64,000 nt of DNA from Bacillota bacterium (GCA_021803205.1 JAJZMB010000162.1:20718-84717), one strand, 5' to 3'; shown: positions 40,694 to 51,041, numbered from the stretch's first letter. A program made the numbers and translations. The notes: generated by a model from the letters alone, not told the origin.

Positions 40694-41590
40694 ATGCGCA
40701 TCGATCTCGCGGGCAGGGTGGCCGTGGTAACCGGGGCGGCCCGGGGTATCGGCGCGGCCACGGCGCGGCGGCTGGCCCGCTCGGGGGCGGCCGTCCTGGT
40801 GACCGACACCTCCGACGAGGCCGGGCGCGGAGTCGTCCGGGCCATCGTCGCGGAGGGGGGTACGGCGGCGTACCTGCACGCCGACGTCGCGCTGGAGTCC
40901 GATATCGCATCGATGCTCGGCGAAGCGGCGCGCCTCTGGGGACGGCTCGACATCCTGGTCAACAACGCCCACTTCGAGGTGCGCGGTTCGGTCCTGGAAG
41001 TATCCGCCGAGGACTGGGACCGTTCCTACGCCGTCCTGGTGCGCGCCCTGTTCCTGGGCGCCAAGCACGCGGTGCCGCACATGCGCTCCGCCGGCGGGGG
41101 CAGCATCGTGAACATCTCCTCCGTGCTGGGGCGCCAACCGACGCGGCGTTATGCGACGTACACCAGCGCCAAGGCGGCGGTGCCGCAGCTCACCCGCCAA
41201 CTCGCATTGGACTTCGGACCCGATGGCATCCGGGTCAACACGATCACCCCCGGGATCATCGACACCGGGCGGGACGCGGACCCGGACCGCGATTCCGAGG
41301 CGGCGCGGCTGACCCCGTTGCTACGGACGGGGGTGCCCGACGACATCGCGAGCGCCATCTGCTTCCTCGTGTCCGATCGGGCGGGCTTCATCACCGGCGC
41401 CGACCTGCTGATCGACGGCGGCGCGACGATTCCGTGGTTCTGGGAGCCGGTGGAGGGTGCGCGGCGGCTGTGGGGGGCGAAGGGGTCGGCCGACGGCGGT
41501 GGCGAGGTGGCCGCGGAGGTGGAGCGGCTGGCGCAAAGGGAGAGGTGGCAGCGGACGGTGGAAGGGAACCCGAGTACCTGGCGGGGATGA
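40694..41590 (+). CDS. SDR-family oxidoreductase
   Basis: The glycine-rich loop is VTGAARGIGAA. NNAHF is present. The catalytic YTSAK is present. The PG motif is ITPGII. It has a C-terminal extension of about 45 aa. Confidence 0.7.
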   Translation: MRIDLAGRVAVVTGAARGIGAATARRLARSGAAVLVTDTSDEAGRGVVRAIVAEGGTAAYLHADVALESDIASMLGEAARLWGRLDILVNNAHFEVRGSVLEVSAEDWDRSYAVLVRALFLGAKHAVPHMRSAGGGSIVNISSVLGRQPTRRYATYTSAKAAVPQLTRQLALDFGPDGIRVNTITPGIIDTGRDADPDRDSEAARLTPLLRTGVPDDIASAICFLVSDRAGFITGADLLIDGGATIPWFWEPVEGARRLWGAKGSADGGGEVAAEVERLAQRERWQRTVEGNPSTWRG

Positions 41591-42110
41591 CCTGGGAGGA
41601 GGCCCGTGCCGATGGGGCCTCTCCGGTAGCATGGACCGCACCTGCCCGTGCGGGTGGATACGGCACTGGTCACGGCGGTGGCGGTACGTCGGCTGCCCCC
41701 GGATGTCCGGGCGATGCCGACGCCCACGCTGCGGCTGGGCGCCTCCCACCAGCACCTGCACTTCTGCACGGTGTCGGTGGATGAGCCCGTCTATTGTGGA
41801 TGTGACTGTCCAAAGCGGCGGCATCCTCGCCGAGGTGGGCTTCCGACGGGTGTTCTCTCTGACCGGCCACGGCGGAAATGCCGCCCCGCCGAGGCTGGCG
41901 GTGAACGAGATTGCGCGCCGCCGGCCCGGCACGCTCGTGGCGGCCGCCGAGTATCGGGCTGGGGCCGGCGGGCATGCGCCCTGAGCGCACGACCGGCGCC
42001 AGCGGTGCGGCGCACACCTGCGAGGTTGAGCACTCGCTTATTCTGGAAGTGGTCGCGCAGGCGGTGCGGGTTGACCCGCGCCGCCTGCCTCCGGCGCTGG
42101 TCCGGGAGCT
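41587..42110 (+). pseudogene. creatininase (creatinine amidohydrolase) family gene, disrupted by multiple frameshifts and deletions
   Basis: The ATG overlaps the SDR stop (ATGA). Recognisable fragments lie in three different frames: MTWEEARADG (frame 1), VRAMPTPTLRLGASHQHLHFCTVSVDEPVY (frame 2), IVDVTVQSGGILAEVGFRRVFSLTGHGGNAAPPRLAVNEIARRRPGTLVAAAEY (frame 3), then HTCEVEHSLILEV (frame 1). The conserved HGGN and terminal H..E.E.S motifs are present, but the N-terminal metal-binding segment is missing. Confidence 0.4.
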
Positions 42111-42433
42111 GGTTGACGGCGGCGCTGGGCGTCGCCTGCAAGCGGCGGTCCAAGGTCGGTGTGCTGGACGACCCCACCCAGGCGCAGCCGGAGAAGGACG
42201 CAGCGACGCTGGAGACCTGCACGCACGGCGTCGCCGACGCTTTGGCGGCATTCGCGCGGCTGCGGGTGTGAGCACCGCCGGTTCGATAGGCGCCGCGCCT
42301 CACAGGCGGGTGGGCTGTCAGCCCGCCCGCCCGAGCGGGCTTCGGTCCGAAGCGACGGTCGCCTCCAATGGCTCGCGCAGCACCTCAACGAGGCAGTCAA
42401 GCGCGGCTCCCGTCGGCTGGCTCCTTACCGGCT

Positions 42434-43066
42434 TCATTCCGGTTGTTGCAATTGCCGGATGAGTTTGGTTTCCACCTGTCGCACGCGCTCGCGCGTGACG
42501 CGAAAGGCGCGGCCGGTCTCATCCAGGGTGTGCGGTGCGCCATCCTTGAGGCCGAAACGGTAGCGCAGCATCTCCTGCTCGCGGGTGCTCAGGGTTTCCA
42601 AGGCCTCCGTCAGCAGGGCCTCAGGGATGGCGGGGGGGTGTGGGTGTTCGGACTCGCTCGCCGCAGGGGCGTCTTGGCTGCGCGGGCCAGGACGGCGCAG
42701 TTCTGGACGGCGGGAGTAATCCGTCAAGCCGGCGACGTTGCCCCAGGGATCGGCGACCTCCACGATCCACCCGGTGTCGGTCTGTATGGGAGCGCTCACG
42801 TGAGAGGCTCCGCGTGACCGGACCTCTTCGCCTGCCGCCCGGGCGTCGGCGACCTCCAGCCAGACGCGGGTTACGAAGCCGCTGCCACCCGGGGTGCCGA
42901 TCCGCACGATGATGCCGCGCGTATCCGGTCCCGCCGAGAAGACTGCGGTACCCGCTTCGTCCTGCCGCAACCGCAGGGGCAGGCCGAGCGCGCCGCCGTA
43001 GTGCACCACTGCCGCATCCAGATCCCCCACGGCGAGGCGAACGCTGTCGATGCCAAGGATGTCCAC
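42434..43066 (-). CDS. VOC/glyoxalase-fold domain fused to a stand-alone sigma-70 region-4 HTH domain
   Basis: The GTG at 43066 has the RBS AAAGGGGG (a GTG at 43084 is an alternative). The N-terminus VDILGIDSVRLAVGDLDAAVVHYGGALGL is a VOC beta-alpha-beta-beta-beta fold. The C-terminus LLTEALETLSTREQEMLRYRFGLKDGAPHTLDETGRAFRVTRERVRQVETKLIRQLQ is about 55-60% identical to region 4.2 of this window's own SigA ([60 protein letters not shown]). Confidence 0.6.
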   Translation of the reverse strand: MDILGIDSVRLAVGDLDAAVVHYGGALGLPLRLRQDEAGTAVFSAGPDTRGIIVRIGTPGGSGFVTRVWLEVADARAAGEEVRSRGASHVSAPIQTDTGWIVEVADPWGNVAGLTDYSRRPELRRPGPRSQDAPAASESEHPHPPAIPEALLTEALETLSTREQEMLRYRFGLKDGAPHTLDETGRAFRVTRERVRQVETKLIRQLQQPE

Positions 43067-43850
43067 CGCCGGGCCCCCTTTCACAAGTCGCCCGGACCAT
43101 CCTGGCTCCGAGGTGTCCGTGGGGTCAAGCGGGACCGGGGACGAGCGGGCGCCTGGCCCCCATTAGGAGATGCTGGCGCTGCAGGGTGATGGTGTGACTT
43201 TACCGAGTCGGAGGTGGCCAGTGTCGGGATGGACAGCCGCGCCTACGCGGACGACCGGGCGCTTGCGGCCTTCCGCCACCCTTAGTCCCCGGGTTTGTGC
43301 AACCTTGCCGCCCAGCCGCTGTGGGCGCCTTTCAAGGCTGTGCGGCAGCCCCCGTGACGCGGTGCCGGGACCGCCCTGGACCGGCAGCGCACAGCGCCCG
43401 CCACTTCCCCGGCAAGGGCGGGGCTCCGCTTCACACCCGGACACGCAGCACACATGGGTCCAGCCCGCTGAGTTCGCGCATCTCCCATGCGCAGGGCGAC
43501 GCCGCCCCACCACTGTGGTTTACGTTCCCGCCCTGTGAGGTCTTCATCACGACGGGTTGCCTCATTACCACCATTGTGCTCGCAAGTCTGCTCCGCCTGC
43601 CACGCCACAGTGGGGGCCGTTGCGAAATGGTAGGTGTGACTTGTCCGGCGTCGAAGGTCTGCCGGTGGTGCGTGGCTGCTATGGCCCCTTGAAACCGCGC
43701 TCGCACGGGCGATGTGGGAACATGCGCTCCGGCTCGTGTGCGGGGCGGACTGTCGGCTGGGGGAAGAGGGGCGACGGGCGCGTGGAAACCGAACAGTCCC
43801 TGCCACGTGATGTGGGAGGCGCGGCGGGTAGGCCCTTTCCCCGTTCATTC

Positions 43851-45693
43851 GTGCAAGAACTCCGGCGACGGGTCGATATCGTGGACCTGATCGGTGCCGT
43901 CGTCGCGCTGCGACCTGCGGGGCGCGAGTTCGTCGGGCTCTGTCCCTTCCATGAGGAACGGACGCCGAGTTTTCATGTATCCCGGGACAAGCAGGTCTTC
44001 CATTGCCACGGATGCCACGCGGGCGGCGATGTTGTGACCTTCGTCATGCGGCGGCAGGCCCTGGGCTTCGCGGAGGCGGTCGTTGCCCTGGCGGTGCAGG
44101 TGGGAATGACCCTGCCGGATCCCCGTCCCCTGTCGGCCGAACAACGTCGACGCCTCGGACTGCAGGAGGAACTCTACGCCGTGTGTGCAGCCGCGGCTGA
44201 CTATTTCAAAGATAGCCTGCTGCAGGCGCAGGGGAGCGACGCCATCGCCTATCTCCGGCGGCGCGGGGTCGACGGCCCTACGGCGGAGCGCTTCGGCCTC
44301 GGATTCGCGCCAGCGGACTGGGAGGGCCTCGGGAGGGCGCTCGCGACAAAATTCCCGCCGGAGCGTCTGCTGCAGGCTGGACTCCGGCGGGAGCGCGGTC
44401 CGGGGCGCGGCGCCTACGACTACTTTCGAGGCCGTCTCATGTTTCCGATCTGGGATGAGCGGGGAAGGGTAGTGGCGTTCGGAGGGCGGGCGTTGGCGGC
44501 CACGGACGGGCCCAAGTACCTCAACTCTCCGGAAACCCCCATTTTTCGAAAGCGGCAGACCCTGTATGCGTTGCACCTGGCCCGGCCGGCCATCGAACGG
44601 GCGGGCCGTGTCGTCGTTGTAGAGGGGTATATGGACGCCCTGACCTGTCACCAGTTCAGGTTCGACCACGCGGTTGCCCTTCTCGGCACGGCGTTGTCAG
44701 ATGCGCAGGCAGGAATGCTGATGCGGTGCGCAGAACTCATCGTATTGGCTTTTGATGCCGATCTCGCCGGAGGCGTGGCAACGGAGCGGGGGTTGGCCGT
44801 TCTCCAGGAACGCGGCGCCCAGGTTGCCGTTGCGCCGATGCCCGCAGGTGCAGATCCCGATGAGGCGTTGCGGGCTGAAGACGGTCCGCGGGTTTTTGGT
44901 GCGGCACTGGATGCCGCCGTGCCCCTGATCCATTATCTTGTGCGCAGGGCGATCGGCGAAGCCAATGTCGCCCGCATGGCTCCCGAGCAGCGCTGGCGGT
45001 TGGCGGAGCAGATGGTGCCTTTCCTGGCTCGGGTGCCGTCCGTGATGGGAAGAGGGACGCGGCAGGAATATATCGAACATGTGGCCCGCGCCCTTGGCTT
45101 CCGTGAGCCATACGACTTGGCCCGCGCTGTCGAGAGGCACGCGGAAAAGGGTGGCGGGCATAGAAATAGAAACACTTGGAACCCTACCCCGGTAGGGGAA
45201 GGGTTCGGCCGTTCCGCTGTGCGCCCCGCATGGGATGCGGCCGAAGAAACGATTCTGGCCGTCTGCCTGCGTTCCGGCGAGTGGCTGCGCCAACTGCTAC
45301 CGGAGCTCAGTATACACGATTTCCGCGGTGCATCGCACAAGGCCCTTGTTGCGAGATTGCTCCAGGGGGGCGTGCCCGTAACGGACGGTGGGGCGGCGGG
45401 AGGGGCGGAGGCTCCGGGTTCCGCGCTTCTCAACGAGGAGGAGGATCCCCAGATCCGGAGCACCATCGCGCGGCTCCTGGCGTTGGAGTTGCCGGAGGCT
45501 ACGGCCGCAGTGTTGCGGCAGTGCCTCGCCACCATGCGGCGCGCGCGATTGCAGGAGGATGCCGGAACGTTGCGCGCGGAGCAGCGGCGGCTCGCGGCCG
45601 AGGGTTTGGACAGATCCGCGGAGATGCTGGCCGTGACGCGGCGGTTGTTCGAATTGACGACGGAGCTGGCCCGCTCCGTCAGGGGTGGCGGCG

Positions 45694-45722
<29 letters not shown>
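43851..45722 (+). CDS. dnaG: DNA primase
   Basis: The zinc-binding domain [32 protein letters not shown] is present. The TOPRIM domain ([10 protein letters not shown] ... AFDAD) is present. A GTG start is proposed at 43851. The track ORF's 98-aa N-terminal extension is not primase-like. Confidence 0.8.
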
Positions 45723-47172
<1,450 letters not shown>

Positions 47173-48556: not shown

Positions 48557-48784
48557 CTAGCGCAGGGTGCCCCCGCGACTGGCCAACTGCTGCTCGGCCA
48601 ATTCGATCATGCGGCGAACCATATGCCCACCGACAGCGCCGCATTGGCGTGCCGGCAGATCTCCCCAGTAACCGTCCTGTGGCGGGGTGACACCGATGTC
48701 GTGGGCAACTTCGTATTTGAATTGATCTAAGAACCGCCCGGCTTCTCGCACCACCGCTCGATTGGACTGGGCCCCCTGCGCCAT
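48557..48784 (-). CDS. alpha/beta-type small acid-soluble spore protein
   Basis: The 75-aa protein AVVREAGRFLDQFKYEVAHDIGV ... GAVGGHMVRRMIELAEQQL matches the SASP family. A perfect RBS AAGGAGGA sits 7 nt upstream. Confidence 0.75.
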   Translation of the reverse strand: MAQGAQSNRAVVREAGRFLDQFKYEVAHDIGVTPPQDGYWGDLPARQCGAVGGHMVRRMIELAEQQLASRGGTLR

Positions 48785-49982: not shown

Positions 49983-51041
49983 TCAATCGAGGTGTTCCCG
50001 CAGGCGCAGGCGGAGGGCGGCATAGTGCAGCTTGCGCAGGGCGCTGGACTCGATCTGGCGTACGCGCTCGTGAGAGATGCCGAGGTGCCGTCCAACCTCC
50101 TTGAGTGTGCATTCCCGGTGTCCCGCAAGGCCGAATCGGAGACGGATCACCTCGGCCTCGCGAACAGGTAATTCTTGAAGGGCCGCGTGGACCGCTTCCC
50201 GCAGCAGTGCGCCTTCGGCGGCGCCAGCGGGTGCCGTGGCGCCTTCATCGGCGACCACGTCGGCAATGATCAGATCTTCGCTGCCCTCCACCGGTGCGTC
50301 TAGACTGATGATCTCCCGTTGCACCCGCAAGGCTCTGCTCAGTACACCGGCATCCAAGACCGACTGGAGCGCGTCGGCCACCTCGCTGCTCGAGGGCCAC
50401 CGACCCAACATTTGCATCAACTGCCAGCGGGTGCGCCGCACCTGGCGTACGGCCTGGTCCAGATGCTCAGGCAGGCGGATGAGGTGTGCCTCGCTGGTGA
50501 TCGTGCGGGCCACGGCCTGGCGAATCCACCATATGGCGTAGGTGCTGAAGCGCAGGCCGTTGCGCTCATCATACTTTTCCGCGGCGCGCAGCAATCCCAG
50601 GTTCCCTGCCTGGATGAGATCGGCGAGTTCCAGGCCGCGGCCCAGGTACCTTGCGGCGACCGACACCACCAGCCGGAGGTTTGAGATTACCAGACGCCGC
50701 TGCGCCTCCTGGTCTCCGGCGCGGACCTGCGCCGCCAGGGACGCCTCCTCCTGGGGGGACAGGAGCCGTGCCCGGCCCACGTCCTGCAGGTAGAGGCCTA
50801 CGACGCCGGGACGATCGACGAATTTCCAGCTTTCGCGCACCGGTCGCCCCCGGCTGCGGCGATCCTCTGGCGGCTGCGGGGCCAAACGACCCGTGGCGGG
50901 GCCGGCGGAGGCGTCGTCCGCGGCCACCGGGGCGCACATCGTGGCATCGGCGGGCTCGTATGGCCCGTCTCCGTCCACTGGCCGCGAGGGGCGCCAGCGG
51001 AGCCGCCCGTGTAGGGAAACGCGAGTGCGGGCGCTCGCCAT
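49983..51041 (-). CDS. sigma-70 family RNA polymerase sigma factor (group 2/3-like, regions 1.2 to 4)
   Basis: DLIQAGNLGLLRAAEKYDERNGLRFSTYAIWWIRQAVAR is region 2. LQELPVREAEVIRLRFGL ... LKEVGRHLGISHERVRQIESSALRKL is region 4. The start is uncertain (51041 or 50939). Confidence 0.65.
   Translation of the reverse strand: MASARTRVSLHGRLRWRPSRPVDGDGPYEPADATMCAPVAADDASAGPATGRLAPQPPEDRRSRGRPVRESWKFVDRPGVVGLYLQDVGRARLLSPQEEASLAAQVRAGDQEAQRRLVISNLRLVVSVAARYLGRGLELADLIQAGNLGLLRAAEKYDERNGLRFSTYAIWWIRQAVARTITSEAHLIRLPEHLDQAVRQVRRTRWQLMQMLGRWPSSSEVADALQSVLDAGVLSRALRVQREIISLDAPVEGSEDLIIADVVADEGATAPAGAAEGALLREAVHAALQELPVREAEVIRLRFGLAGHRECTLKEVGRHLGISHERVRQIESSALRKLHYAALRLRLREHLD

Follow-up and report, generated by a model that had tools for sequence, protein, structure and literature searches.

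Why would a bacterium carry the promoter-reading domain of a primary sigma factor detached from the rest of the factor and joined instead to a protein of the glyoxalase fold? This question is raised by a minus-strand gene in a 64,000-nucleotide stretch of DNA from a Bacillota bacterium (GCA_021803205.1, JAJZMB010000162.1:20718-84717; the whole stretch is referred to as the window), where the gene lies next to, and is transcribed away from, dnaG-sigA. Its product consists of a vicinal oxygen chelate (VOC) module, a short linker and region 4 of a sigma-70 factor (sigma-4). The reading that we favour, and regard as probable if only by a little, is that this protein is a one-component regulator that works as a dimer, responds to a ligand and would bind −35-like DNA through its sigma-4 heads. 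The gene and its parts are arranged as follows:

42434–43066, minus strand: VOC-sigma-4 gene, 210 codons plus stop, with a GTG start at 43066
42701–43066, minus strand: VOC/glyoxalase-fold module, residues 1–122, assigned from PF00903, AlphaFold2, Foldseek and stand-alone relatives
42629–42700, minus strand: disordered, variable linker, residues 123–146, assigned from the predicted local distance difference test (pLDDT), substitution rates and alignment
42437–42628, minus strand: sigma-70 region 4 (4.1 plus the 4.2 helix-turn-helix, HTH), residues 147–210, assigned from PF04545, RpoD models and identity to SigA
43074–43081, minus strand: Shine-Dalgarno sequence AAAGGGGG, 7 nt before the GTG and kept in all four lineages that carry the gene

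The minus-strand open reading frame (ORF; 42434–43084) spans 216 aa when it is counted from its first GTG. We placed the real start at the GTG at 43066 because the database orthologues begin there, giving a 210-aa product, and because AAAGGGGG precedes this codon in each lineage. The G+C content at third codon positions (GC3) of the gene is 0.79, compared with 0.82 for sigA and 0.79–0.82 for real genes of the window. Pfam recognised a Glyoxalase domain (PF00903) at residues 11–117 with 28.3 bits (gathering cut-off 20.6) and a Sigma70_r4 domain (PF04545) at residues 161–213 with 44.6 bits (gathering cut-off 24.1), while sigma-70 regions 1.2, 2 and 3 gave no Pfam match in the protein at E≤0.1 and Response_reg gave none either. 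In the AlphaFold2 model (pLDDT 88), residues 1–120 form two beta-alpha-beta-beta-beta modules and residues 149–207 a four-helix sigma-4 domain with pLDDT above 90, separated by a linker of about 25 aa in which pLDDT falls below 50 at residues 133–140. An invariant PPxIPE motif opens the sigma-4 part directly after the linker. The fusion that an initial annotation of this DNA had proposed is thus borne out by two profile matches above threshold and by agreeing predicted folds, including the intact sigma-4 HTH; the similarity to region 4 does not fall below significance. Also upheld is the view that the protein cannot be a sigma factor, because regions 2 and 3 are absent; judged by its domain content, it cannot bind core RNA polymerase or melt DNA as a sigma factor does.

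Such an unusual gene could be a dead chimera, that is, a decaying partial duplication of sigA or an artefact of assembly or gene calling, and its distance of 2.6 kb from sigA, the decay of neighbouring genes in the window and the tiny size of the family would all fit this idea. A search for orthologues, however, recovered the same architecture in four lineages, at 100% (P0001), 83% (P0002), 68% (P0003) and 60% identity (P0004), and taken together these account for more than 30 contigs, drawn from assemblies at NCBI, ENA, JGI and Logan. A protein identical to that of the window is encoded by at least 23 contigs of independent NCBI, ENA and Logan origin, and the other three lineages stem from ENA, Logan and JGI samples. 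Pairwise Nei-Gojobori estimates among the four lineages, with synonymous divergence (dS) of up to ∼1.3, gave ratios of nonsynonymous to synonymous divergence (dN/dS) of 0.04–0.15 for sigma-4, 0.22–0.39 for the VOC module and 0.33–0.96 for the linker. The gene is therefore real and under purifying selection, which is strongest on sigma-4. With a single frame intact in four lineages despite a dS of ∼1, low dN/dS, a conserved Shine-Dalgarno sequence and promoter, independent assemblies, and only 57% identity to SigA, which is not that of a recent copy, we consider the dead chimera effectively refuted, and with it the possibility of a frameshifted remnant or of two genes called as one.

For the sigma-4 half, the primary sigma gene of the window served as the comparison partner:

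45685–47172, plus strand: sigA, primary sigma factor, identified by ORF, Pfam, NCBIfam and BLASTP

The NCBIfam RpoD/SigA models matched the protein only over their last ∼60 positions (E 1e-17 to 1e-19), and all NCBIfam sigma model scores were far under the curated cut-offs. By BLASTP, sigma-4 was identical to the window's SigA at 33 of 58 positions (57%; E 3e-19), which agrees with the 55–60% of the initial annotation. By sequence, then, the domain is group-1-like and descended from a primary sigma factor. The description of the domain as closely related to SigA holds only in a generic sense, as 31 of the 58 positions are identical in B. subtilis SigA, 31–32 (53–55%) in unrelated primary sigma factors from the database, and 28 of 57 in a second sigma factor encoded in the window. 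These values speak against a recent copy of the adjacent sigA, and the special tie to this neighbour that had been supposed is not upheld, since other primary sigmas are about as similar and the adjacency results from the insertion of a cassette, as described below. With 58 residues, the alignment is too short for a phylogeny to resolve the ultimate source of the domain. A match to MzaA (∼700 aa) reached 67 bits against an NCBIfam cut-off of 800 for the full-length protein, with the likeness limited to the last ∼55 positions (602–656 of the 683 positions of the PADLOC model); the matches that might have indicated a phage or defence origin were generic sigma-4 matches only, and this origin was rejected.

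The residues that this domain has kept and lost were mapped in E. coli sigma70 numbering, using sigma70 and B. subtilis sequences that were checked by the positions of known residues. Among the positions that we take to be the −35 contacts (R554, L573, E574, R584, E585, R586, R588, Q589 and K593), those corresponding to R554, L573, R584, R586, R588, Q589 and K593 are invariant across the four lineages; at the E585 position three lineages have E and the fourth has D, and at the E574 position all four have D. The recognition helix TRERVRQ is conserved. By contrast, features that count only within the holoenzyme have been lost: Glu is invariant at the R541 position, where the host SigA has Lys, the K597 and R599 positions of the basic activator patch are both Gln, and the chain ends at the residue equivalent to S602, leaving out residues 603–613 with the L607 C-terminal helix. 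The substitution pair R541C and L607P has been used experimentally to disrupt the contact between sigma-4 and the beta-flap. Relative to primary sigma-70 factors (SigA/RpoD), the C-terminal 64 residues are therefore a bona fide region 4.1/4.2, whereas regions 1.1, 1.2, 2 and 3 and the C-terminal helix are missing and R541, K597 and R599 are replaced. This pattern is what would be expected of a free DNA-binding domain rather than of a flap-binding mimic, and the protein is probably not such a mimic.

Conceivably, the domain could still serve as a decoy that titrates a partner of SigA region 4, such as an anti-sigma-like protein, an activator (e.g. Spo0A) or the beta-flap, with the VOC module in control. 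In support of this, sigma-4 is clearly derived from a primary sigma factor and its dN/dS is only 0.04–0.15; the family-specific invariant substitutions that lie off the recognition helix (Y561, H571, T576, R581 and L594 in sigma70 positions) could form a new protein interface; the gene survives the decay of its cassette in the window, which fits a global role; and sigma mimicry has a precedent in PhyR. However, the replacement of R541 by Glu and the loss of the L607 segment change or delete the flap determinants, and the activator patch is neutralised by the two Gln residues, which weakens a flap-mimic reading in particular. A pure protein decoy would moreover have no need of the conserved −35-contacting residues, and no gene for a candidate partner is conserved beside the fusion gene. 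We therefore consider such a decoy unlikely, though it is to be taken seriously. Among the roles that had been suggested at the outset, namely sigma-4 mimic, decoy or transcription factor, it is the last that agrees best with these residues.

The presence of region 4 without region 2 could also suggest half of a split sigma factor, in which the fusion protein provides −35 recognition while a separate region-2 protein provides core binding and recognition of the −10 element. Bipartite sigma factors have precedents, such as SigO-RsoA of B. subtilis. Yet phmmer searches (--max) found no region-2-like ORF beyond the two complete sigma genes, either in the window or at the loci L083, L084 and L086 of the fusion gene in other lineages, and its conserved neighbour encodes an enzyme resembling glycoside hydrolases (GH-like). 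Since the flap-contact determinants for sitting on core are also missing and the N-terminal half is an intact VOC fold, this explanation appears very improbable.

The VOC half aligns end to end with stand-alone VOC proteins of 130–146 aa, mostly from Actinomycetota, at 43–53% identity, and it is conserved up to their normal C-terminus (...DYSRRPE). Sequence comparison thus indicates that a complete stand-alone VOC protein was extended at its C-terminus by the linker and sigma-4; the N-terminal VOC fold of the initial annotation is confirmed, with the amendment that it is a whole protein rather than a domain. The proposal that it binds a metal did not hold up. In a profile alignment to E. coli glyoxalase I (GlxI; the ligand numbering of the sequence used checked out), the ligands E56, H74 and E122 correspond to R55, R67 and G113, and H5 corresponds by register to S8, which is N in the stand-alone relatives. 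All four canonical ligands are replaced, and on this alignment the canonical metal site is absent throughout the VOC subfamily. Among PDB sequences the best genuine match was TnmS2, which binds tiancimycin (E 4e-8), and glyoxalase I entries and UcmS2 came next; tetratricopeptide repeat (TPR) matches that topped this list were a low-complexity artefact. Foldseek matched 4mym, TnmS1, GlxI, UcmS2, ZbmA, BLMA and FosA with probability 1.0, template modelling (TM) scores to target of 0.6–0.8 and identities of 20–26%. These small VOC proteins are homodimers with a binding site at the dimer interface. By analogy, we infer that the VOC half is a dimerising small-molecule-binding module and not an enzyme. 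Elsewhere the same VOC subfamily is fused to further modules that bind nucleic acids, namely TfoX_C (above the Pfam cut-off) and, weakly, MarR.

As the closest solved relatives bind DNA-cleaving antibiotics (TnmS1/2, UcmS2, ZbmA and BLMA), the fusion could alternatively be a DNA-tethered binding or resistance protein, whose VOC module sequesters or modifies a small molecule, for example a DNA-damaging one, while sigma-4 localises it to DNA. That the stand-alone relatives are small actinobacterial proteins, and that the metal site is absent, as it is in VOC proteins of the sequestration type, would be consistent with this. On the other hand, identity to the antibiotic-binding proteins is only 20–26%, and sigma-4 rather than the VOC module is the most constrained part of the protein, with sequence-specific reading residues for which generic tethering would have no need. 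Neither a biosynthetic nor a resistance cluster was found in the neighbourhoods of the window's lineage, L083, L084 and L086, where the context is catabolic. We hold this alternative to be improbable.

If the protein is a regulator, the region upstream of its own gene is of immediate interest, and it contains the following element:

43099–43128, minus strand: promoter-like element with TTGACC at 43123–43128, an 18-nt spacer and CAGGAT at 43099–43104

In the window, L083 and L084 the distance from TTGACC to the start codon is exactly 62 nt, and nAGGAT follows 17 or 18 nt after the hexamer. At the L086 locus the hexamer is found at −206; a 30-nt tandem duplication (ccgcagggaccaagcagcaagcccgaaccc, two copies, around 1880–1960) between TTGACC and the start shifts it there from −62. 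A strict scan for consensus promoters and terminators called nothing, and it missed the element because its −10 hexamer is weak.

The fusion gene is divergent from dnaG-sigA in all four lineages. A two-gene unit is present at L083, L084 and L086, in which the fusion gene comes first and a conserved GH-like gene of ∼380 aa follows on the same strand 31–108 nt downstream. A convergent operon of a creatininase, a short-chain dehydrogenase/reductase (SDR) and an enolase-superfamily protein (MR_MLE) adjoins this unit. The members of this cassette that lie outside the window, or survive within it, are:

L083 8742–9896, L084 3416–4561 and L086 2695–3837: GH-like family of ∼380 aa, without a Pfam family
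40694–41590, plus strand: SDR gene, surviving member of the cassette (Pfam adh_short_C2, E 1e-65; synteny)
41557–42268, plus strand: creatininase-family pseudogene with multiple frameshifts, a remnant of the cassette

Sister lineages, whose SigA is ∼81% identical, have glyS directly followed by dnaG-sigA, and because of this the whole block is seen to be an insertion. Gene order therefore indicates that the fusion gene arrived with a carbohydrate-type catabolic cassette that was inserted between glyS and dnaG, and that it lies near sigA because the cassette went in at this site. This cassette is decaying in the lineage of the window: the GH-like and MR_MLE genes are gone, and the creatininase gene is reduced to five tblastn high-scoring segment pairs in different frames (at least four frames) that are 60–89% identical to the intact gene of L083, while the SDR and VOC-sigma-4 genes are intact. 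The metagenome-assembled genome (MAG) annotation calls only a 67-aa fragment of this pseudogene, which lies between the SDR and fusion genes. The GH-like protein is predicted to form a (beta/alpha)8 TIM barrel, with Cwp19, PgaB-C and GH42/GH29 as its neighbours, and its family comprises 19 clusters in 5.8 billion sequences. Its invariant Cys and His residues (H108, C134, H173, H177, C195, C197 and C200) may form a metal cluster. A more distant homologue, with 53% identity, is encoded in a genomic setting that is unrelated and lacks the fusion gene. Assemblies with the identical fusion protein diverge just past the SDR gene (on the window side below ∼40600), where L001 and L003 continue with glyS, L002 with genes for sulfatases and an ABC transporter, and L004 with those for a Mu-type transposase and its AAA+ partner; the region looks like a rearrangement hotspot or strain variation.

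The fusion protein combines a predicted ligand-binding input and a DNA-binding output domain in one polypeptide, which is the architecture of one-component regulators, and its gene, being the first of a two-gene unit beside a catabolic operon, has the position typical of a local regulator. In the mechanism that we propose for a regulator of this kind, the VOC module without a catalytic metal site would, by analogy with small VOC proteins, form a homodimer with a small-molecule pocket and so serve as both sensor and dimeriser. The flexible linker of ∼25 residues would carry the primary-sigma-derived sigma-4 with its complete −35-reading head, and the dimer, free of RNA polymerase, would bind TTGAC(A/C)-like sequences. 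The most economical target would be the −35 hexamer of the fusion gene's own promoter, which ancestrally may also have driven the GH-like gene immediately downstream. Occupancy of this hexamer would then compete with the SigA holoenzyme until a ligand alters the affinity. Since detached sigma-4 domains with other partners exist, sigma-4 is used outside sigma factors.

Several points weigh against such a regulator. The main weakness is that its presumed local targets have been lost or pseudogenised in the window while the regulator itself is intact. A search for operators over the four loci, covering dyads and direct repeats of TTGAC-like sites, found only one TTGACC in each upstream region, and this conserved hexamer may simply be a SigA −35 element. 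Both dimerisation and ligand binding are extrapolated from knowledge of the VOC family, and isolated sigma-4 binds DNA weakly. According to one paper, moreover, intact B. subtilis SigA alone bound promoters via the −10 and not the −35 element. That the regulator outlives its presumed local targets would imply that it has other targets or a non-local role. One version of this would be that the −35-reading head was exapted onto a dimeric ligand-binding scaffold as a free-standing competitor of SigA. Through it a small molecule could control how RNA polymerase reaches an entire class of promoters, or a factor that binds region 4 could be titrated, in place of action at a private operator. A role as a broad −35 competitor would account for a gene that stays intact after the neighbouring cassette has decayed; nevertheless, we think this version rather doubtful.

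How does this protein relate to those already described? With a HMMER profile of the family we searched 1.84 billion sequences, each representing a cluster at 50% identity, and the only end-to-end match was one cluster, the family itself. No second VOC-sigma-4 cluster was present among these representatives, all other profile matches being VOC-only or sigma-4-only, and two apparent two-domain matches proved on inspection to be UvrD-N/sigma-3/sigma-4 (P0115) and Metallophos/sigma-4 (P0147). A scan of species-representative genomes with patterns of the VOC half gave VOC-only relatives among the matches listed. The family is confined to an uncultured Bacillota clade. The literature yielded no description of VOC-sigma-4 proteins or of characterised orphan group-1 sigma-4 regulators, which sustains the earlier statement that no family with this architecture had been described.

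The orphan sigma-4 as such, in contrast, is not unique. The databases hold other proteins in which a group-1-like Sigma70_r4 without region 2 is joined to an unrelated partner, as in the fusion, and to which NCBI applies the generic name 'sigma factor-like helix-turn-helix DNA-binding protein'. They include an XRE-HTH with sigma-4 (P0035, P0040 and P0051), an N-terminus of no assigned family with sigma-4 (P0037, P0050, P0052 and P0060) and sigma-4 with Lcl_C (P0048). Tandem Sigma70_r4 arrays were also observed, with ∼10 copies in the 938-aa P0072 and two each in P0091, P0093 and P0100. None of the detached sigma-4 proteins has a VOC partner or is related to the fusion outside sigma-4, and no functional study of them, tandem arrays included, was found in the literature. 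With one-component regulators of the sensor-HTH kind, the fusion shares a sensor-type fold and an HTH in one polypeptide, as well as a gene that heads a catabolic cassette; it differs in its output, a C-terminal housekeeping sigma-4 that is predicted to recognise the general −35 consensus instead of a dedicated operator. It has the paired fold and the size of small homodimeric VOC proteins (TnmS1/2/3, UcmS2, ZbmA/BLMA, glyoxalase I and FosA), but is only 20–26% identical to them, has no GlxI/FosA metal ligands and carries the additional linker and sigma-4. Sigma-derived domains outside a canonical sigma factor are likewise known from PhyR and SigO-RsoA. PhyR, however, joins a receiver domain to an ECF-like (extracytoplasmic function) sigma-2 and sigma-4 in which the DNA-binding residues are degenerate, and SigO needs an adjacent region-2 partner, whereas the fusion has sigma-4 alone, of the group 1 type, with its DNA-reading residues intact and no partner nearby. 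The fusion is therefore a new variant within two known kinds of protein, the one-component regulators and the detached sigma-4 proteins.

Around the fusion gene, the window contains these further features:

42305–42332, minus strand: GC-rich hairpin ∼100 nt past the stop codon, tentatively a terminator without a U-tract
43129–43781, no strand assigned: remainder of the gap between the two divergent genes, as far as the likely dnaG start
43557–45722: dnaG ORF, with its likely start by homology at GTG 43782 or 43812

The fold z-score of the hairpin region is only −2.2. The gap between the fusion gene and dnaG, given earlier as an unexplained ∼780 bp, is real, with a length of 715–745 bp for a dnaG start at 43782 or 43812 and ∼815 bp by the MAG gene call. 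It consists mostly of non-conserved spacer and two promoter or leader regions: conservation with L083 is limited to ∼100 bp beside the fusion gene, which contain the TTGACC element, and to the ∼170 bp that precede dnaG. Between them, ∼450 bp are unique and show no conservation, and the L084 gap measures only ∼158 bp. No structured RNA in the gap matched Rfam at the gathering threshold or at E≤1, and no repeat of the gap sequence elsewhere was found. A hidden gene was considered and rejected, as the 188-aa ORF at 43282–43848 (minus strand) is unconserved in L083, has a GC3 of 0.67, as expected for non-coding DNA, and has no Pfam domain. The MAG records list this ORF as a gene, and it overlaps the dnaG start; it is probably spurious. 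The gap needs no special explanation.

On the other side of dnaG, the sigA ORF from the GTG at 45685 overlaps the end of dnaG (45685–45722) and adds ∼100 residues before region 1.1. The closest SigA database entries are ∼395 aa long, and the true sigA start probably lies ∼100 codons downstream. The second complete sigma-70 gene of the window, at 49983–51041 (minus strand), encodes 352 aa with regions 1.2–4; its recognition helix ISHERVRQ has His at the R584 position, which suggests a different −35 specificity. The host belongs to an uncultured Bacillota lineage with ∼69% G+C, and its nearest named relatives by SigA, which are only ∼70% identical, are Limnochordales, Desulfofundulus and MAGs labelled 'Bacillota bacterium'. 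A gene for a small acid-soluble spore protein of the alpha/beta type lies at 48557–48784 (minus strand), a sign that the host forms endospores, despite its high G+C content.

Region 4 of primary sigma factors is normally viewed only as a part of the holoenzyme. In this family it stands apart from the rest of the factor but retains the residues that read the −35 element, is strongly selected and is attached to a probable ligand-binding dimer. If the protein does bind −35-like DNA, nature would have provided an occluder of −35 elements that is gated by a ligand, and a simple way to repress SigA promoters. Synthetic biology would then gain a useful component, and the protein would illustrate how new transcription factors may arise from the basal machinery.

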